DNA from: a virus
Lineage: Duplodnaviria > Heunggongvirae > Uroviricota > Caudoviricetes
Reading direction: 5' to 3' (one strand)
Length of the DNA: 9,660 bases
Virus record (IMG/VR): IMGVR_UViG_2706794688_000013
Part shown: positions 243-9,660 of the stretch, one piece after another
Layout of the letters: every line of letters begins with the position of its first letter
Position numbering within the stretch: the stretch's first letter is position 1
Translations under genes and position numbers: made by a program
The notes under the pieces: generated by a model
The model's database searches: none
What the model was told of the DNA's origin: nothing
What the model saw: the letters and a program-made list of their open reading frames with translations, nothing else

Positions 243-1325
243 TCATTTTCTCTGGCTGATCTTTACCGGATAACCATCCCGAAGATCAATTAAGTGCTCC
301 GGTTCAGAAGCAAACCATGCATAAGATCCCCACGCCAATTCTGGTATTGCCTTTTTAAAAGGCAGAGCACTTCTGTCCATAAATGCCGTAAGGAATGCAA
401 GATTTTTCTCGCTGAACCCAGCGTCAATAGCCAAATGAGTGAGAGTAACTTTTCGTTCCCTGTTTATAGGCCCATCTGTCGCAACTACTTCAGTGAAAAC
501 TACAAGCATGTCCGAACCCGTTCGGTCCTCTCCCAAATCAATCAAAATAATATCTGGAAGTGCTTTTGAGGCATCAATATTCAGCCCCAATGCTTTTGCC
601 AATACATCATCCTGAGCAACAACTTTATTCCCGGATTCAGACAACCAGAGCACAGTTGGATTCTTAAGAAAATTAGGAGCAAAAACTTCGATGACGGCCT
701 TAGCTATTGTACTTGACGGGCCCGGAGCTAAAGTTCTCTTCTCTCCATTTGGGAAAGTGACGACTACGGCATCAGCAGCAATCACTGCCCCTGATTTCAA
801 TAAACGCAACCTAGCAAGAGCGGCTTTGTTCAAATGATTTTCTTGCCAGGAACTTATTGCACTCAGCAGCGAATCTCCTTCAAGCCCGGCATCAAAGAGT
901 GCTGCAAAAGAGCGATTCAAACTGTAACGAGGACGAGAGGATGTGGTGGGTATACCTTTACGCTCAACAATTGCATTGCAAGGTATTAGGCCATTTTTTA
1001 TAGTTTCATCACGTATTGGCTCACGCGTATTTTCCGCATACCATGCATCAGCAGGCCTTATCTTTTGTTTAGAGAAAGTCATCTTTACCCAGCTTTCTCT
1101 GGACGCATCATCAGTAAGAGCAGCCTGCGAATCTCCCATACTTACAACCTGGCTGGGCCTTATCCATCGCCCCAGCCCCTCAACCGCACCAGCATAAAAC
1201 ATGACAAAAATTGTTTTTGCAGCTATTTCCCGAATTAAATATCCACGATTCTCAGTCCCTTCAGGGAAAATTAATTGTAATCTTTCCCGGATAACATTCA
1301 ATGGGGGAACAACAGGCAGATTCAT
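243..1325 (-). CDS. Putative Type II restriction endonuclease (BsuBI/PstI-like, tentative)
   Basis: 360-aa ORF whose ATG (1325..1323) overlaps the TGA of the upstream methyltransferase in an ATGA arrangement, indicating translational coupling. Stop TGA at 245..243. The family assignment rests on operon context and my recollection of BsuBI/PstI-family sequences; no catalytic motif was verified. Confidence 0.55.
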   Translation of the reverse strand: MNLPVVPPLNVIRERLQLIFPEGTENRGYLIREIAAKTIFVMFYAGAVEGLGRWIRPSQVVSMGDSQAALTDDASRESWVKMTFSKQKIRPADAWYAENTREPIRDETIKNGLIPCNAIVERKGIPTTSSRPRYSLNRSFAALFDAGLEGDSLLSAISSWQENHLNKAALARLRLLKSGAVIAADAVVVTFPNGEKRTLAPGPSSTIAKAVIEVFAPNFLKNPTVLWLSESGNKVVAQDDVLAKALGLNIDASKALPDIILIDLGEDRTGSDMLVVFTEVVATDGPINRERKVTLTHLAIDAGFSEKNLAFLTAFMDRSALPFKKAIPELAWGSYAWFASEPEHLIDLRDGYPVKISQRK

Positions 1326-3154
1326 GCAATCATCACTCCATAGAAACCAGCGATAGTTCTCTCAATAATCCGTCTGTGGACGCCAGCATCAATTAACGAT
1401 TGAATCTCCATCACCTGCTCCAGAGAAGGCAACGGGATTGAATTCAATTCATAGGCCGAAACAGCAACACTTCCGCTTATACACCTGAACGCCCGATCGA
1501 CAACATGCGAATTAAGTAGCATATCAATAACATCAGGGCGAACCGCAGAGAACAATCCGTTTGAATATACAATATTAATATGGTTTTCAACTACTACGCC
1601 ACCAGTTTCATCTATAAATCCCTGAGGTAAAATTGCCGCTAAAATCCTTCTGTCCTGTTCCTTCGATGTTGTCCGCTGAACAAGCACACATTCAGATTTT
1701 GTCACAAGGAAACCCTGTTGTGGGGTTATATCGATATAGGGAACATGATTTTTTCTGTCTGCACTAAAACGAAAACCAGCTGAAGTTATTGATTCCGCCC
1801 AGACTAATGGGTAGCTATTTTTTCCTTTCGTCGTACGCAACTGCGACTTAAATCGATTCCAGACTAACTGACCTGTAGAGACTGAGTATCCCAGATCAGC
1901 TAAACGCGTAGACATCTGTTTTAATACATTAAGAAAACAGGCATCATCTTTAACGCGTGGCAAAAGCCACGTTGCTCCACCTTTTTCTATATCAACATTA
2001 CCTATTTTCTCAATTTTTGCTTTGTTCAACCCCTTAGGGACAAGTGAGGATACCTGGGCCCGAACTTTATGTTCTCCCGCCTTGAATGCTGTCAACATTG
2101 TTTCCTGGAGAACATCGTCAAAGACCCCATCCCTGTCAGTGACGAAATCAAGGGCATACGGAGTAGTTTTTTCGGTCAAAAGGGTTCGCAGCGCGGTGAA
2201 ATACTGCCCACCAAGAAAAGAAGTTGGCGTAAGAAATGCAATAACTCCTGTTTTCTCTTTAACCATGCGAACAGCTAAGTCGGTGAACAATCCATATAGA
2301 TTTGCATGACCAAATAACGAACGAGAATATTTTTCTCTCGTTTTAATATCGAGAGTGACACGTCCGTAAGGCGGATTCCCTACCACAAGATCATAACCAG
2401 AAAATTTATCTTGCTGAAGCGCATCAGCAACAATAATTGTATCTTCAGGCAATCTACGTTTTACCTTTACACATAGTGGCATTAGTACAGATTCGAGCAA
2501 TACCAAACTCATCCAAGCCGCAAATGGATCGATCTCTATCCCCTTTAAACGACGACTGATTCTCCTCAACATCCATTCAGGGGAAGACCCCTTGTCTTTT
2601 TTTAACATTCGAATGGCTACTGGTGCCAAAAATGCACCGCCACCACACGCAGGATCAATAACCGATGCATGAGAAAAATCAACACCAGACTTTTCAGCCA
2701 GGTCCAAGAGACGCGCTACCAAAGGTGGGGGGGTATAGTAAGCCCCCAATTCCGAACGGTAAGCGGATGGCAGCATTACCGTATAAATTGACCCAATCAG
2801 ATATCCAGCGTCCTCCGCCGGAAATTGAGCAATAAGCTCACCTGTTCGTTCAGCGAGCTCGCGTGCATCACATGGAATGTCTTCTATGTAAACAGTGTGC
2901 GGTACTGCCCTCATTTTAATGCTGCTTTTTTGCTTTTTTGCAAGGGTATCCCAATATGCAGCTACGATGCTGAAGCAGTATGAGCGGGCATGCATCAACC
3001 TTGACTGCCCGGTTTTGTAATTGCCCGCATAACCTTTGGCCATGGCTTTACAAGTTTGATATCTTTCCAGATTAGAAAACTCATTATCTGTAAAAAAATC
3101 AAAATGTTGCACATTCATAATGTAAAATCCTAATGTATCAAACATGCGGGCCAT
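1322..3154 (-). CDS. N6-adenine DNA methyltransferase (gamma-class amino-methyltransferase)
   Basis: 610-aa ORF with motif order X (ELGAYYTPPPLV), I (VIDPACGGGAFLAP, the AdoMet-binding loop) and IV (VVGNPPYGRV, the NPPY catalytic motif), followed by a long C-terminal region consistent with a target-recognition domain. The start could be 3154, 3145 or 3118; the ATG at 3118 has the best Shine-Dalgarno (TAGGAT). Confidence 0.85.
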   Translation of the reverse strand: MARMFDTLGFYIMNVQHFDFFTDNEFSNLERYQTCKAMAKGYAGNYKTGQSRLMHARSYCFSIVAAYWDTLAKKQKSSIKMRAVPHTVYIEDIPCDARELAERTGELIAQFPAEDAGYLIGSIYTVMLPSAYRSELGAYYTPPPLVARLLDLAEKSGVDFSHASVIDPACGGGAFLAPVAIRMLKKDKGSSPEWMLRRISRRLKGIEIDPFAAWMSLVLLESVLMPLCVKVKRRLPEDTIIVADALQQDKFSGYDLVVGNPPYGRVTLDIKTREKYSRSLFGHANLYGLFTDLAVRMVKEKTGVIAFLTPTSFLGGQYFTALRTLLTEKTTPYALDFVTDRDGVFDDVLQETMLTAFKAGEHKVRAQVSSLVPKGLNKAKIEKIGNVDIEKGGATWLLPRVKDDACFLNVLKQMSTRLADLGYSVSTGQLVWNRFKSQLRTTKGKNSYPLVWAESITSAGFRFSADRKNHVPYIDITPQQGFLVTKSECVLVQRTTSKEQDRRILAAILPQGFIDETGGVVVENHINIVYSNGLFSAVRPDVIDMLLNSHVVDRAFRCISGSVAVSAYELNSIPLPSLEQVMEIQSLIDAGVHRRIIERTIAGFYGVMIA

Positions 3155-5479: not shown

Positions 5480-5732
5480 NNNNNNNNNNNNNNNNNNNNN
5501 NNNNNNNNNNNNNNNNNNNNNNNNNNNNNNNNNNNNNNNNNNNNNNNNNNNNNNNNNNNNNNNNNNNNNNNNNNNNNNNNNNNNNNNNNNNNNNNNNNNN
5601 NNNNNNNNNNNNNNNNNNNNNNNNNNNNNNNNNNNNNNNNNNNNNNNNNNNNNNNNNNNNNNNNNNNNNNNNNNNNNNNNNNNNNNNNNNNNNNNNNNNN
5701 NNNNNNNNNNNNNNNNNNNNNNNNNNNNNNNN
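5480..5732. other. Assembly gap (253 N)
   Basis: Uninterrupted run of n. The X-containing ORFs reported across it are reading artefacts. Confidence 0.99.
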
Positions 5733-6813: not shown

Positions 6814-7239
6814 TCAATGTACTGCCACAGCATTTCCTGCCGGGCCACCACGGTTCATCTGATTGAAACCGGCGATTGCCACTGCGACAAAATCATCAGC
6901 GTCTCTCACCAGTCGTTCATGCGTCTCCACCAGTTCCCGAAAATAAGCTGAACTGTGGCTGCGCATTCGAGCCACCAGCGGAGGTGGCATTGCCCTTTCG
7001 ATCGCAGGTAACAACGCCTGAATTTTTTCAACAGCGTCAGGGGTGTCTTTATCCAGCCAACGGAAAATCTTTTGGGTGTTGAGATAAAGCGTGTTGTGCT
7101 TGCTGTCGTTATGCAGAACCGGAAACGTCATTCCCAGTTCGAAATAAACCCTGGTTATTTCAGCTGCCGGAACTTTTTCACCGTCCGGATGCGCCCAGGC
7201 TTTCATCGCCATGCGGATGTGTTCATGCTTGATTTTCAT
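6814..7239 (-). CDS. YdaT-like protein (Rac-prophage family; proposed CII-like regulator)
   Basis: 141 aa beginning MKIKHEHI, which I recall as the N-terminus of E. coli Rac YdaT. Its ATG (7239..7237) overlaps the TGA of the upstream Cro-like gene (ATGA), and GGGGG lies upstream. Confidence 0.65.
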   Translation of the reverse strand: MKIKHEHIRMAMKAWAHPDGEKVPAAEITRVYFELGMTFPVLHNDSKHNTLYLNTQKIFRWLDKDTPDAVEKIQALLPAIERAMPPPLVARMRSHSSAYFRELVETHERLVRDADDFVAVAIAGFNQMNRGGPAGNAVAVH

Positions 7240-7499
7240 GAATCAACCCCCGCCGATGGTTGTGTGTTAGCCTGAAACTCAGCAGGCAAGCCGTCAGTTG
7301 GGTTGGGGTAGGTTTTACTGTCAATCTCATGTGGGGTCACCACCCATCCCGTTGCTTCACACCAACGTAATATTTTTTCTCCTGTAAGTTTTGCACGCCC
7401 CGTTATAACGTGGCTGACCATCCCTTGGGATGCGCCAACAATCTCAGCAAATGAACTCTGGGTTATATGAAAATGATGCAAATATTCTCCAAGATTCAT
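7236..7499 (-). CDS. Cro/YdaS-like HTH regulator
   Basis: ATG at 7499 is preferred over the ORF track's TTG at 7526. HTH-like segment QSSFAEIVGASQGMVSHVITGRAKLTGEKI. Transcribed divergently from the repressor gene and first in the replication operon. Confidence 0.6.
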   Translation of the reverse strand: MNLGEYLHHFHITQSSFAEIVGASQGMVSHVITGRAKLTGEKILRWCEATGWVVTPHEIDSKTYPNPTDGLPAEFQANTQPSAGVDS

Positions 7500-7535
7500 A
7501 ATCCGCCCTATGTGATGTGTTACCAATGCATAATT

Positions 7536-7575
7536 AATAGCACTGTTATTTTTAAAAGTAAATAGTGATACTATT
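7536..7575. promoter_or_regulatory. Two operator-like 15-bp palindromes in the divergent promoter region
   Basis: 7536..7550 AATAGCactGTTATT and 7561..7575 AATAGTgatACTATT, 25 bp centre to centre. On the minus strand a TTTACT-17-TATTAA promoter-like pair (plus coordinates 7557..7562 and 7534..7539) overlaps them, so repressor binding would occlude the Cro-like promoter. Confidence 0.45.
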
Positions 7576-7610
7576 TCAAAGTGATTAGCAATCTTATTAG
7601 AATTGGATGT

Positions 7611-8111
7611 ATGAAAAGAAAATCATTGTCAGACACCGACCTCAACGCCGCCAGAAGACTGAAAGAAATCTGGATGGCAAAGAAATCTCAGTTGGGATTG
7701 ACTCAGGAACGTGCGGCGGAAATTATGGGGTTTTCAACACAAGGGGCGGTAAGTCACTACCTAAATGGTCAAACCCCACTAAACCTTGAGGCTGTTCTAA
7801 AGTTTGCTGGCTTACTGAAAGTTCCCCCTGAGTCAATCAGGCCAGACATGGTAGATTTGCTGCAAATTGCAAGGATGTATTGTCGAGAACCACAGCAAGA
7901 TAACATAGTCGCATTACCAGCAGACACAGAACAAACAGAGGATGAACTACCGTTTGCCGTAGAGCCGATGGAACGAGATTTAATCCATACGTTCAGAGCT
8001 TTTCCGAAAGAAGATCAAGAACACATGCTTCAGGAGATGAAAGATAAAAAAGAATCAATGGATCGTACGGTTGCGCGGTGGTTAGCTGCACAAAAAGGCC
8101 GTCGCGCCTAA
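7611..8111 (+). CDS. HTH (XRE-family) repressor; candidate immunity repressor and/or PaaR-like regulator of the downstream toxin-antitoxin pair
   Basis: ATG at 7611 is preferred over the ORF track's start at 7581. N-terminal HTH (LTQERAAEIMGFSTQGAVSHYLNG). No Ser-Lys peptidase (LexA/S24-like) C-terminal domain is recognisable. Divergent from the Cro-like gene. Confidence 0.7.
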   Translation: MKRKSLSDTDLNAARRLKEIWMAKKSQLGLTQERAAEIMGFSTQGAVSHYLNGQTPLNLEAVLKFAGLLKVPPESIRPDMVDLLQIARMYCREPQQDNIVALPADTEQTEDELPFAVEPMERDLIHTFRAFPKEDQEHMLQEMKDKKESMDRTVARWLAAQKGRRA

Positions 8112-8130
8112 ATCAGAGGAGATATGTAAA

Positions 8131-8325
8131 ATGAGTACAGTCCTTTCCCCAATGGTTTCAGAATTTGAGACAGTTGAGCAAGAAAATAGTTACAACGAAT
8201 GGCTGCGGGCCAAAGTAGCAGCAAGCCTCGCGGATCCCCGCCCGGCGATTCCGCATGATGAGGTAATGGCGGAAATGGAACAAATTATTGCCCAAATTGC
8301 TGCTGCAACTCACAGAGGTGAATAA
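8131..8325 (+). CDS. Small antitoxin (PaaA/ParD-like)
   Basis: 64-aa acidic protein directly upstream of a ParE-like toxin, with a 1-nt stop/start overlap (TAATG). Shine-Dalgarno GAGGA lies 10 nt upstream. Confidence 0.65.
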   Translation: MSTVLSPMVSEFETVEQENSYNEWLRAKVAASLADPRPAIPHDEVMAEMEQIIAQIAAATHRGE

Positions 8326-8615
8326 TGTTACCCGTTTTATGGCTACCATCTGCTCGTGATGATTTGCGCCAGATCGTAGCCTACATAGCTAAAGAAAATC
8401 CCGCGGCAGCACGCAGAATGAAAATTCGAATTGAAACATCCGTTTTGCCGCTCACAGAGCATCCTTACCTGTATCCTCCAAGCGAGCGAGTTCTTGGTCT
8501 TCGTGAAATTGTAACTCATCCTAACTACATCATCCTTTACCGAGTAACAGCATCAAGCATAGAAGTAGTAAATATTGTGCATTCTCGAAGACAGTATCCA
8601 GGCAAAAACAGTTAA
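8325..8615 (+). CDS. ParE/RelE-superfamily toxin
   Basis: 96 aa with the ParE-like pattern: N-terminal W..SARDDLRQIVAYI, then PYLYP...GLREIVTHPNYIILYRV, then VVNIVHSRRQYP at the C-terminus. Coupled to the antitoxin. Confidence 0.75.
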   Translation: MLPVLWLPSARDDLRQIVAYIAKENPAAARRMKIRIETSVLPLTEHPYLYPPSERVLGLREIVTHPNYIILYRVTASSIEVVNIVHSRRQYPGKNS

Positions 8616-8631
8616 TTATTCCCGCCGACAG

Positions 8632-8656
8632 AACCACCTTAGGGTGGTTTTTTCTT
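8632..8656 (+). terminator. Rho-independent terminator after the toxin gene
   Basis: Stem AACCACC (8632..8638), loop TTAG, stem GGTGGTT (8643..8649), running into TTTTTTCTT. Confidence 0.6.
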
Positions 8657-8671
8657 GCCCCAACAAAAAAC

Positions 8672-8714
8672 AATAGCGATGCTATTTACATCAAAAAAAA
8701 ATAATGATGCTATT
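8672..8714. promoter_or_regulatory. Second pair of operator-like palindromes (same consensus as 7536..7575)
   Basis: 8672..8686 AATAGCgatGCTATT (perfect 6-3-6 inverted repeat) and 8700..8714 AATAATgatGCTATT, 28 bp centre to centre. TTTACA at 8685..8690 could serve as a -35 for a rightward promoter. Confidence 0.4.
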
Positions 8715-8895
8715 GTTTCAGGCGTCAACCCACCCCGCCCCACAGAATGCAGGGCAATACTTCGAGTTACCAGACAGTGGTCAGGGGTTAAGTAGCCAGC
8801 CCGAGGCGTAAGAACATGACGGCAGGGTTCAATCTTTAACTATGCAGCAGGTTTTTTGTTCCGCCACCCCGGCGTTAAGGGGAAATGAGGTCAGC

Positions 8896-9048
8896 ATGGA
8901 TACTATCGATCTTGGCAACAACGAATCTCTGGTGTGCGGCGTGTTCCCTAACCAGGATGGAACGTTTACCGCCATGACGTATACCAAAAGCAAAACGTTT
9001 AAAACCGAATCTGGCGCGCGTTGCTGGTTAGCCAGAAACACTGACTGA
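8896..9048 (+). CDS. Small hypothetical prophage protein (50 aa)
   Basis: ATG at 8896 with GAGG 5 nt upstream; the ORF track's upstream extension has no ribosome-binding site. The sequence MDTIDLGNNESLV... resembles small proteins I associate with Rac-type prophages (YdaF-like), but that is from memory only. Confidence 0.5.
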   Translation: MDTIDLGNNESLVCGVFPNQDGTFTAMTYTKSKTFKTESGARCWLARNTD

Positions 9049-9059
9049 TGAGGCTGACG

Positions 9060-9425
9060 ATGGAATTTAAAGATTTACCGTCTGATGTACAGAAAACAGC
9101 AGCTCATACATTGCATTCTGTGCTGCGAGAAATCGGGAAAGATATTGCAAGCGAGCCAGCAAAAGATCTGGCCCGGAAAATCAAGACCGCTTTCGTTGAG
9201 CTTTATAATGTTGGCACTGACTCTGAAACTGTCGAGACCAAGACCGTAAGTTCACCAATATTCTCACTTGAGCCAAGCGTATTATCAGGTGAAATATGCA
9301 CCGAGATTTCCAGCGAACTGCTTCCGGTAATACGAGAAGCAATTCGCCGTCGCGGTTTGGATGGAAGTTATGATCATGACGTTCTGCAAGTTCTCAGGAC
9401 AATGGTGACTTCACTGGGGATTTGA
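9060..9425 (+). CDS. Hypothetical protein (about 121 aa)
   Basis: ATG at 9060 is preceded by GAGG with a 6-nt spacer; it follows the upstream gene's stop (9046..9048) by 11 nt. No recognisable motif. Confidence 0.5.
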   Translation: MEFKDLPSDVQKTAAHTLHSVLREIGKDIASEPAKDLARKIKTAFVELYNVGTDSETVETKTVSSPIFSLEPSVLSGEICTEISSELLPVIREAIRRRGLDGSYDHDVLQVLRTMVTSLGI

Positions 9426-9557: not shown

Positions 9558-9660
9558 GGTAATGACTCCAACTTATTGATAGTGTTTTATGTTCAGATAA
9601 TGCCCGATGACTTTGTCATGCAGCTCCACCGATTTTGAGAACGACAGCGACTTCCGTCCC
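9558..9660 (-). mobile_element. IS1 right end (terminal inverted repeat plus the 3' end of insB), truncated by the window edge
   Basis: 9558 onward reads GGTAATGACTCCAACTTATTGATAGTGTTTTATGTTCAGATAATGCCCGATGACTTTGTCATGCAGCTCCACCGATTTTGAGAACGACAGCGACTTCCGTCCC, the complement of the IS1 right terminus and insB C-terminus (…SFSKSVELHDKVIGHYLNIKHYQ*) as I recall it. The insB stop corresponds to plus-strand 9574..9576. Confidence 0.85.

Follow-up and report, generated by a model that had tools for sequence, protein, structure and literature searches.

A probable PaaR-PaaA-ParE toxin-antitoxin operon at the repressor of a decayed lambda-like prophage in Shigella sonnei

In the cryptic prophage CP-933P of Escherichia coli O157:H7, PaaR2 is the analogue of CI: it represses PR and PL and autoregulates the paaR2-paaA2-parE2 operon, with YdaS acting as Cro and YdaT as CII in a bistable switch (PMC8630535). 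The paaR2 mRNA is leaderless, its transcription start site (TSS) having been mapped to the start codon, and OL/PL elements exist (PMC8630535). ParE2 induces SOS, PaaA2 is broken down by ClpAP/ClpXP, and the locus shows addiction and can stabilise a mini-F plasmid (PMC8630535). Jurenas et al. saw ParE2 activated in neither state of the switch. For CP-933P it has been shown experimentally that the immunity repressor is also the regulator of a toxin-antitoxin (TA) module and that this module occupies the rex position (Jurenas 2021), and the same was stated outright by Prolic-Kalinsek 2023. A paaR2-paaA2-parE2 locus of identical type is present in Escherichia phage Evi (LR597642).

The locus analysed here is an S. 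sonnei copy of this three-gene operon and sits behind the repressor of a lambda-like prophage that has decayed; it lies in a stretch of 9,660 nucleotides (IMG/VR record IMGVR_UViG_2706794688_000013), hereafter the window. Its architecture, its regulatory logic and the analogy of its position to that of rex have been published for the known system and leave little matter for discovery. What is new is the DNA-binding half of the repressor, which by its sequence resembles that of lambda CI, and the locus is predicted to be a heteroimmune member. The variant thereby provides a sequence-level link between PaaR-type regulators and lambda CI, for which the CP-933P work had analogy alone.

Operon layout, antitoxin and toxin

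The regulator gene (7611–8111, 166 aa), the antitoxin gene (8131–8325, 64 aa) and the toxin gene (8325–8615, 96 aa) all lie on the + strand. Direct reading of the sequence gave a 19-bp gap at the first junction, with AGAGGAG 9 nt 5' of the antitoxin ATG, and a 1-nt overlap (TAATG) at the second. The operon is closed by an intrinsic terminator (8630–8657, + strand) consisting of a 9-bp stem (AGAACCACC/GGUGGUUUU, 8630–8638/8643–8651) followed by UUCUU (8652–8656); the RNA fold has −15.1 kcal/mol (z = −3.8, equally stable folds in 0 of 200 shuffles), and the stem is kept in the O145 and RMDEC465 loci. A simple consensus terminator scan did not return this hairpin, probably because the stem runs into the T-tract. 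Coordinates, junctions and terminator agree with an earlier note on this DNA, which had described a helix-turn-helix (HTH) repressor, an antitoxin and a toxin, co-oriented with short or overlapping junctions and followed by a terminator. Co-directional genes with a single terminator 3' of the toxin gene point to the one-operon layout of PaaR-PaaA-ParE systems.

In comparison with an 80%-identical E. coli O145 homologue, dN/dS was 0.084 for the regulator and 0.054 for both the antitoxin and the toxin, and the three genes are thus under strong purifying selection. Judged from the sequence, the operon is real and functional-looking (dN/dS 0.05–0.09). Two further features of the regulator gene were discarded: an internal promoter (TTGACT-17-AATTAT, 7698–7726) is at chance level, with 3 such matches in the consensus scan vs 3.8 expected, and a perfect 12-nt inverted repeat (7696–7707/7827–7838) is absent from the O145 homologue and was attributed to chance. 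An Rfam search of the whole window gave no match.

The antitoxin belongs to the PaaA family (Pfam PaaA2 PF21217, 3e-23; PaaA2 structure PDB 3zbe, 1.4e-23), with PF21217 as its sole Pfam domain and no DNA-binding domain. It shares 67% of its residues with PaaA2, 78% with the other O157 copy and 86% with the O145 protein, 37 columns are invariant in an alignment of four Paa antitoxins, and its C-terminal tail is PaaA1-like, not PaaA2-like. The toxin is of the ParE1/ParE2-like type (ParE_toxin PF05016, 1.8e-17; ParE2 structure PDB 5cw7_B, 6.7e-37, with residues 1–93 aligned); identities are 67% to ParE2, 83–86% to the other O157:H7 copy and 88% to the O145 protein, and the Paa toxin alignment contains 55 invariant columns. 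Both assignments, which like the HTH_3 match of the regulator exceed chance by far, match those of the earlier note, a 64-aa antitoxin and a 96-aa ParE-family toxin. In RefSeq the three proteins are named 'helix-turn-helix domain-containing protein', 'RelB family antitoxin' and 'RelE/ParE family toxin'. We rejected the RelBE assignment, as RelE_StbE is a marginal match to the toxin (29.3 bits vs a cut-off of 27.9) and ParE_toxin and ParE2 score 64 and 128 bits, respectively; the NCBIfam 'RelB antitoxin' model spans antitoxin residues 5–49 and so takes in the Pfam PaaA2 region (16–48). A better annotation would be heteroimmune PaaR-type repressor, PaaA and ParE.

Domains and relatives of the regulator

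The regulator has a CI-type N-terminal HTH domain, which matched lambda cI (PDB 1lmb) at 2.9e-9 with 32 of 80 residues identical (40%). The PDB search returned lambda CI N-terminal domains alone and no PaaR2 entry, and full-length CI chains aligned with regulator residues 2–90 only. Pfam gave HTH_3 (8e-9) and HTH_31 only, with no S24 peptidase domain of the kind that undergoes RecA-stimulated autocleavage. After a linker, the C-terminal region matched the DicA model (7e-8, positions 74–130 of 135), the whole protein scoring 32 bits against the DicA family, far under the cut-off of 101 bits. Over the final 64 aa the identity to an O157 PaaR1-type protein is 56%, and this stretch can also be aligned with PaaR2, whose sequence was taken from phage Evi, where it was recognised by the published N-terminus MQKKE. 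Overall identity to PaaR1 and PaaR2 is 37% and 31%, respectively, with the C-terminal ~60 aa alone aligning, and by this comparison the regulator is a domain-swapped PaaR relative, not an orthologue. The resemblance to PaaR-PaaA-ParE pointed out in the earlier note therefore holds for the antitoxin, the toxin, the layout and the position in the immunity region, and for the regulator it is confined to those C-terminal residues; the comparison which the note had proposed bore out PaaA2 and ParE2 (67% each) and failed for the N-terminal domain of PaaR2.

Relatives with the same N-terminal domain fill the cI slot with no TA downstream (P0020), and PaaR1-type repressors with a near-identical C-terminal end are followed by PaaA/ParE (P0043); the TA is therefore optional cargo on an immunity repressor. 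The last 22 residues of P0031 are identical to those of the regulator, P0043 differing in the final three only. Tandem-HTH relatives measure 240–255 aa.

Divergent genes, promoters and candidate operators

Divergently from the repressor, as the earlier note had described, a cro-like gene (7236–7499, − strand, 87 aa) starts 111 bp from the regulator ATG and encodes a Cro/YdaS-like HTH regulator (HTH_3 in Pfam; PHROG 35, transcriptional repressor, 8e-17), which shares 36% identity with the O157:H7 YdaS-like protein and 100% with a RefSeq 87-aa protein of E. coli RMDEC465. The adjoining gene (6814–7239, − strand, 141 aa) encodes a YdaT-family transcription factor, functionally the counterpart of lambda CII, according to Pfam (YdaT_toxin PF06254, 5e-9) and PHROG (163, 'CII-like transcriptional activator', 3e-40); the product is 81% identical to the O157:H7 YdaT beside the other Paa locus. 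The junction of the two genes contains, in a PRE/OM-like position, a predicted YdaT recognition site (TTGATTTTCATGAATCAA, TTGATT-N6-AATCAA, 7229–7246), the sole zero-mismatch match to the motif in the window. Motif and position agree with the footprint obtained at the ydaS-ydaT junction of CP-933P (PMC9986795). Divergent ydaS-ydaT-like genes with this site at their junction suggest a lambdoid immunity region. A reading of YdaS/YdaT as a second TA pair, after the Pfam names ('toxin'), was rejected, the two being published Cro and CII analogues (PMC8630535, PMC9986795).

Candidate operators of the pattern AATAG-N5-CTATT flank the operon on both sides; 7 matches to the pattern occurred in 0 of 200 shuffles. 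Upstream, pattern searches returned an OR1-like site (AATAGCACTGTTATT, 7536–7550), whose half-sites are kept in the O145 homologue with a variable centre, and an OR2-like site (AATAGTGATACTATT, 7561–7575), a zero-mismatch match with perfectly palindromic half-sites that are kept in the O145 and RMDEC465 loci. The OR2-like centre lies 43 bp 5' of the regulator ATG, which is also the predicted TSS, and the site abuts the −35 element of a PRM-like promoter (TTCAAA-17-TAGAAT, 7575–7603, + strand) found by the consensus scan and kept in the O145 locus. A weak OR3-like site (ATTAGCAATCTTATT, 7584–7598) overlaps the spacer and −10 element of this promoter. It is a two-mismatch match, by sequence no better than chance at a stringency for which ~3.8 matches are expected per window, and its position and 23-bp spacing from the OR2-like site point to a possible operator. 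On the far side, between the terminator and the ydfA-like gene, lies an OL-like pair (AATAGCGATGCTATT, 8672–8686, and AATAATGATGCTATT, 8700–8714) of zero- and one-mismatch matches, which form a direct-repeat family with an OR site and have half-sites kept in O145. The pair is analogous to PL933P/OL of CP-933P (PMC8630535). A conserved non-coding block further on (8735–8830) folds no more stably than its shuffles (z = +0.5).

The cro-like and ydaT genes may be transcribed from a PR-like promoter (7534–7562, − strand: TTTACT, a 17-nt spacer and the extended −10 element TGC-TATTAA), which the candidate operators at 7536–7550 and 7561–7575 overlap. It was read by eye and not returned by the consensus scan because the scan demands T at −10 position 6. 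The PRM-like −10 element TAGAAT ends 7 nt 5' of the regulator ATG with no Shine-Dalgarno sequence upstream, and a leaderless repressor mRNA is predicted from this distance; the geometry is like that of paaR2 in phage Evi, where GATAAT ends 6 nt 5' of the ATG. From palindromes and geometry we infer that these sites serve as operators and that the regulator controls its own transcription.

Probable roles in the prophage remnant and relation to known systems

An IS1-bounded prophage remnant of ~9.5 kb in S. sonnei matches the window at 100% identity, and the index of the collection has the exact repressor sequence in 6004 blocks. Compared with two related E. coli prophages, the element is missing the late-gene region and the greater part of the left arm, and it carries a PstI/BsuBI-type restriction-modification (R-M) system. 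Sibling loci of S. sonnei and E. coli have a ydfA homologue behind the repressor and dicB at a greater distance, with ydfB and ydfC annotated in the E. coli loci only. A PaaA homologue is encoded in 1 of 50,697 phage-collection records (Evi); in other phages, similarity at the DNA level is limited to the ydaT/cro flank or the ydfA side.

We consider it probable that a decayed lambdoid prophage of S. sonnei, Qin/CP-933P-like in type, has its immunity region here and that PaaA-ParE travels as cargo immediately after the repressor in one operon; the mechanism that follows is drawn from homology to CP-933P and from sequence anatomy. The 166-aa repressor would be made from a leaderless mRNA started at the PRM-like promoter, would bind AATAG-N5-CTATT at OR (7536–7598) and OL (8672–8714) through its lambda-CI-like N-terminal domain and would oligomerise through its PaaR/DicA-type C-terminal domain. 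Binding would switch off the cro-like/ydaT/replication operon and the PL-side genes from ydfA to dicB and set the level of its own and of TA transcription; the Cro/YdaS-like protein would compete for the same operators, and YdaT, bound at 7229–7246, may offer a CII-like alternative route to operon transcription. As PaaA is without a DNA-binding domain, TA transcription would depend on the prophage switch, and as the repressor has no LexA/S24 autocleavage domain, induction of the switch through RecA is not expected. PaaA would neutralise ParE by direct binding. By analogy with PaaA2/ParE2, for which alone these properties were shown, PaaA would be protease-labile and ParE stable, SOS-inducing and probably topoisomerase-targeting, so that a cell which lost or exchanged the immunity segment would die; the module would thus act as an addiction/stabilisation device for that segment. 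S. sonnei would be a natural setting for the proposal that, in decaying prophages, a TA keeps the immunity segment stable. Two suggestions of the earlier note, that one protein is both immunity repressor and TA regulator and that the TA sits in a rex-like position, fit the cI/dicA slot found here and were already in print, the former established for the homologous CP-933P (PMC8630535) and expected here by analogy, the latter as an analogy (PMC9986795). Its suggestion that lysogeny maintenance is tied to addiction shrinks to the silencing of replication and PL-side genes, because the element is a remnant bounded by IS1 and reduced as described above.

The module might alternatively be a Rex-like abortive-infection or superinfection-exclusion system in which an infecting phage triggers the TA and the killed or arrested cell protects the population; many type II TAs act as abortive-infection systems, and the R-M system of the remnant adds a flavour of defence. 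The position behind cI is that of rexAB, an analogy also made in PMC9986795, and the layout implies co-transcription with a repressor that is on in lysogeny. However, none of the three proteins has a PADLOC match or RexA/RexB homology, Pfam assigning them to other families, the homologue has post-segregational killing as its one demonstrated phenotype, and for 12 of the 21 papers mentioning paaA, parE and abortive infection, going by title and opening of the abstract, phage defence by PaaA-ParE is not a stated topic. We regard this role, which the earlier note had suggested and which finds no support here, as quite improbable. Less credible still is a split-antitoxin TA, in which the HTH protein would be the detached DNA-binding half of a ParD/RelB-like antitoxin and the cro-like neighbours incidental. 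It would account for the missing DNA-binding domain of PaaA and for the NCBIfam label 'RelB family', and Jurenas et al. raised and then rejected the possibility; yet the regulator combines lambda CI N-terminal and DicA/PaaR C-terminal domains, stands exactly in the cI/dicA position, has candidate operators at both OR and OL around the promoters of other operons, and has same-domain relatives that fill the cI slot with no TA behind them.

The reduction of the prophage to ~9.5 kb between IS1 copies, an IS1-truncated neighbouring parE and the split methyltransferase and DnaC-like genes of some S. sonnei genomes (L009, L010) would suit an inert relic with no current function. We give this reading very little weight, since the three open reading frames are intact in every S. 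sonnei locus shown, dN/dS is low, and promoter, operators, ribosome-binding site, overlap and terminator all look intact. A broader joint reading goes beyond the addiction model and is, taken as a whole, unlikely. According to it, the repressor may be a natural chimera of a lambda-CI N-terminal domain and a PaaR/DicA oligomerisation domain; the arm, the acidic activation patch and the OR2-like site at −43 may be genuine CI features; PaaA-ParE, the PstI-type R-M system and a repressor of replication and DicB-type division inhibitors may together have preserved the 9.5-kb piece; and the TA might in addition be a Rex-like anti-phage system. If true, the chimera and the 240–255-aa tandem-HTH relatives would make PaaR-type 'TA regulators' bona fide CI-lineage repressors that exchange DNA-binding modules.

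Our preferred reading, an immunity region with addictive cargo, is closest to CP-933P. Both have a regulator-antitoxin-toxin operon in the cI slot divergent from ydaS-ydaT, with conserved PaaA and ParE (67% each) and regulator C-terminal ~60 aa, a −10 element 6–7 nt before the ATG, an OL-like operator set beyond the TA, a YdaT site at the ydaS/ydaT junction and no S24 autocleavage domain. Unlike PaaR2 (123 aa, no Pfam match), the regulator has 166 aa and a lambda-CI-like N-terminal domain (40%) unrelated by sequence to that of PaaR2; the antitoxin tail is PaaA1-like; and the candidate operators are 15-bp AATAG-N5-CTATT sites in place of 18-bp GTTTAGTAA-type repeats, a difference from which heteroimmunity is predicted. 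A second O157:H7 Paa locus, which we take to be the CP-933M copy because PMC8630535 places a homologue there, and PaaR1-like loci (P0043) are the closest TA relatives of a characterised family (antitoxin 78%, toxin 83–86%). The second locus shares the regulator C-terminal domain (56%), the ydaT flank (81%) and DUF1391/ydfA downstream; it differs in the N-terminal HTH domain, where BLASTP detects no similarity, and in a Cro-like partner of only 36% identity.

As in lambda cI, the homologous N-terminal domain has a basic arm (KRK vs KKK) and acidic residues aligned with cI E34 and D38, and the OR2-like centre would lie at about −43 from the predicted leaderless start. Operator spacings are 25 and 23 bp, compared with 24 and 23 bp in lambda, and the cargo genes behind the repressor appear to be bracketed by OR and OL, as in cI-rexA-rexB. 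Unlike in lambda, the repressor lacks an S24/RecA-cleavable C-terminal domain, a ParE TA with no homology to RexAB forms the cargo, and proteins of other families (YdaS-like and YdaT) stand in for Cro and CII. The Qin DicA/DicC region of E. coli K-12 shares the chromosomal neighbourhood with ydfZ and a mannitol-dehydrogenase-family gene, which we take to be that of the K-12 Qin map, the order ydfA homologue then dicB 3' of the repressor in sibling loci, and the regulator C-terminal domain, which matches the DicA model; to our knowledge, no TA lies behind DicA. Finally, the module resembles canonical parDE in its ParE-fold toxin (PF05016) and in a small, by analogy labile, antitoxin that lies immediately upstream and is translationally coupled, but unlike in parDE the antitoxin has no ribbon-helix-helix or other DNA-binding domain and no autoregulation, regulation being left to a separate prophage repressor (PMC8630535).

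Operon structure and identity of the toxin-antitoxin pair

ORF calls and sequence reading placed three co-oriented genes on the plus strand exactly as the earlier note had them, coding for an HTH regulator of 166 aa (7611–8111), an antitoxin of 64 aa (8131–8325) and a toxin of 96 aa (8325–8615). The regulator and antitoxin genes are separated by a gap of 19 bp containing AGAGGAG, and the antitoxin and toxin genes share the stop/start overlap TAATG. The operon ends with a terminator hairpin (8630–8657) consisting of a 9-bp G+C-rich stem and a U-run (−15.1 kcal/mol, z = −3.8; equally stable folds in 0 of 200 shuffles); despite this folding result, it was absent from the output of a simple consensus scan, probably because the stem reaches into the T-tract. 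A Cro-like HTH gene (7236–7499) and a YdaT-family gene (6814–7239) are divergent from the repressor gene, at a distance of 111 bp from its ATG.

The antitoxin matched Pfam PaaA2 (3e-23) and the solved PaaA2 chain (1.4e-23), and the toxin matched Pfam ParE_toxin (1.8e-17) and the solved ParE2 chain (6.7e-37, residues 1–93 aligned), which, with the operon layout, bears out the PaaR-PaaA-ParE resemblance and the structural description given in the earlier note. The RefSeq naming 'RelB/RelE' is an artefact, the RelE_StbE match being marginal (29.3 bits versus a cut-off of 27.9). Three reference loci were used: that of Escherichia phage Evi, taken as PaaR2-PaaA2-ParE2 type because its regulator starts with MQKKE, the determined PaaR2 N-terminus; the other O157:H7 copy (L003), which we infer to be the CP-933M paralogue since a homologue has been placed there (PMC8630535); and an O145:H28 locus (L002) with the same 166-aa regulator type. 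Antitoxin identity was 67% to PaaA2, 78% to the other O157 copy and 86% to O145, and toxin identity 67%, 83–86% and 88%, respectively. Relative to the O145 homologues, dS was saturated (about 1.2–1.4 for regulator, antitoxin and toxin) and dN/dS was low (0.084, 0.054 and 0.054, respectively), indicating that all three are maintained as proteins. The locus is real and intact, and apparently functional. Of 5426 complete E. coli genomes, 842 had a DNA match to the toxin-antitoxin pair, and a single one of 50,697 phage records has the pair; the exact repressor sequence was indexed in 6004 collection blocks.

An apparently chimeric repressor and its candidate operators

The regulator could be aligned to PaaR1-type and PaaR2 proteins only over its last ~60 residues (56% identity to the PaaR1 type), a region with the conserved motif ...F-AFP-ED....KKESM...ARWLAAQK-RRA for which the DicA model also gave a match, in its C-terminal part (7e-8). 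Its N-terminal 80 residues align with the lambda CI N-terminal domain (40% identity, 2.9e-9), with the basic arm kept (KRK versus KKK in lambda) and acidic residues at the positions equivalent to cI E34 and D38; the recognition helix differs from that of CI. Judged from these alignments, the regulator is a domain-swapped PaaR relative, and this apparent fusion of a lambda-CI N-terminal domain to a PaaR C-terminal domain is of modest interest. Comparison with Pfam and PDB sequences found no S24 peptidase domain, so RecA-mediated induction is not expected, as reported for PaaR2. PaaR2 itself had no Pfam match whatsoever, in line with its authors' description of it as similar to CI 'despite lacking sequence similarity' (PMC8630535).

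Relatives of the N-terminal domain include tandem-HTH repressors of 240–255 aa (P0013, P0020 and P0022; loci L014-L016 2501-3268), in which a lambda-CI-like N-terminal domain, 65–75% identical to that of the regulator, precedes another HTH domain, of PaaR1-like type, and then the C-terminal domain of PaaR. The 166-aa regulator thus looks like such a protein minus its middle domain. The longer repressors, P0020 included, occupy the cI slot facing cro/ydaT and have no toxin-antitoxin genes downstream; PaaA/ParE do follow PaaR1-type regulators whose C-terminal end is nearly identical, and in a sibling E. coli prophage with matching flanks the repressor belongs to the LexA family and has no toxin-antitoxin pair with it. 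This distribution argues that the regulator is primarily an immunity repressor and that the toxin-antitoxin pair is optional cargo.

Candidate operators, 15-bp AATAG-N5-CTATT palindromes, flank the operon in the manner of lambda OR and OL: OR1-like (7536–7550) and OR2-like (7561–7575) sites upstream, and OL-like sites (8672–8686 and 8700–8714) downstream. The refined motif gave 7 strand-matches in the window, a number reached in 0 of 200 shuffles; a weaker third OR candidate (7584–7598) is plausible by position only. The repressor of the O145 locus is 80% identical, and the operators there have the half-sites preserved and the central bases changed. A consensus scan identified a PRM-like promoter on the plus strand (TTCAAA-17-TAGAAT, 7575–7603), the −10 element of which ends 7 nt before the repressor ATG (6 nt in phage Evi). 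Sequence reading found no Shine-Dalgarno sequence upstream of this ATG; a leaderless arrangement has been demonstrated for paaR2 and is known for cI (PMC8630535). The OR2-like site abuts the −35 element, its centre 43 bp upstream of the predicted leaderless start. Reading by eye suggested a PR-like promoter on the minus strand (TTTACT-17-TGC-TATTAA) under the OR1/OR2-like sites. The single exact YdaT motif in the window (TTGATT-N6-AATCAA, 7229–7246) lies at the cro-like/ydaT junction, and in CP-933P the motif was footprinted at the same ydaS-ydaT junction (PMC9986795). Unlike the AATAG-N5-CTATT palindromes, the PaaR2 operators are GTTTAGTAA-type repeats, and the element is therefore heteroimmune.

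A non-coding block of ~100 nt (8735–8830), located after the OL-like operators and before the ydfA-like gene, hardly varies among loci in which the adjacent genes differ by ~20%. It had no Rfam match and its fold was not unusual (z = +0.5); it may represent an element of nutL or 5'-UTR type. A perfect 12-nt inverted repeat inside the repressor gene (7696–7707, GATTGACTCAGG; 7827–7838, CCTGAGTCAATC) is probably due to chance, as its conservation does not extend to the O145 homologue.

An IS1-bounded prophage remnant

The window is 100% identical to the Shigella sonnei chromosome CP151357.1, has IS1 termini at both ends (1–91 and 9558–9660; the two flanking copies share orientation in CP151357.1), and is a ~9.5-kb IS1-bounded remnant of a Qin-like lambdoid prophage adjoining ydfZ and a mannitol-dehydrogenase-family gene. 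It carries, in order, a PstI/BsuBI-type R-M pair, genes of the DUF977 and DUF1627 families, replication genes for a DnaC-like loader and an O-like replisome organiser, the YdaT and Cro-like genes, the repressor operon, and ydfA-like genes. At the left end, IS1 cuts off a second RelE/ParE-family toxin, leaving a plus-strand stub of 36 C-terminal codons (92–202, RHRTIIAFAVDDNKVFIAGVYHGGQIYETDFLSSAP and stop); E. coli FDAARGOS_943 has an intact parD-parE pair at this position, adjoining the R-M genes. The intact, overlapping R-M genes (243–3154, minus strand) encode a BsuBI/PstI-family type II endonuclease (360 aa; PADLOC REase_II, 2.8e-128) and an N6-adenine methyltransferase (610 aa; MTase_II, 1.8e-300), the latter split in some S. 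sonnei genomes (L009, L010), and form a second addictive module on the remnant. A run of 253 Ns (5480–5732) at the O-like/DnaC-like junction does not represent the true length, since the gap corresponds to 296 bases in the identical S. sonnei genome.

Relative to the O145 locus, dS was 0.39 for ydaT (6814–7239) versus 1.2–1.4 for the repressor operon (7611–8615), pointing to a recombination boundary between them, typical of lambdoid mosaicism. Downstream of the OL-like region lie, on the plus strand, a DUF1391/ydfA-like gene (8842–9045; RefSeq homologues are 50 aa and start internally) and a 125-aa ORF without assigned function (9048–9422; PHROG 33007, 5e-80); the genes that come next, which in sibling loci continue towards dicB, are interrupted by IS1 in S. 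sonnei. As the late genes and most of the left arm of related E. coli prophages fall outside the S. sonnei segment, the lysogeny maintenance proposed in the earlier note is reduced there to silencing of replication and PL-side genes.

Proposed mechanism and comparison with CP-933P

The best-supported reading is the CP-933P model as published, applied to a heteroimmune variant. The repressor, as CI, would bind OR and OL, silence the cro-like/ydaT/replication operon and the PL side, and set its own transcription and that of paaA-parE. The Cro-like protein would compete for the repressor's sites, and YdaT, as CII, may give an alternative transcription start. PaaA, which is without a DNA-binding domain, would neutralise ParE through binding; upon loss of the segment, stable ParE would be unopposed, resulting in addiction. 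The further proposal of abortive-infection defence found no support: PADLOC had no match for regulator, antitoxin or toxin, and PaaA-ParE phage defence was not a stated topic in the titles and abstract openings of the matches listed for paaA, parE and abortive infection.

Gene identities, anatomy, operator and promoter sequences, purifying selection and modular distribution were established in this analysis. Binding, leaderless start, bistability, SOS induction, Clp-dependent PaaA2 decay and plasmid stabilisation were reported for the CP-933P homologue only (PMC8630535; PMC9986795) and presumably also hold for the variant in the window. A single protein acting as immunity repressor and toxin-antitoxin regulator, with the pair in the rex position, was proposed in the earlier note and was already in print, having been demonstrated for CP-933P by Jurenas et al. 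2021 (PMC8630535) and stated also by Prolic-Kalinsek et al. 2023. The locus is thus a heteroimmune variant, itself new, of the already known PaaR-PaaA-ParE system.
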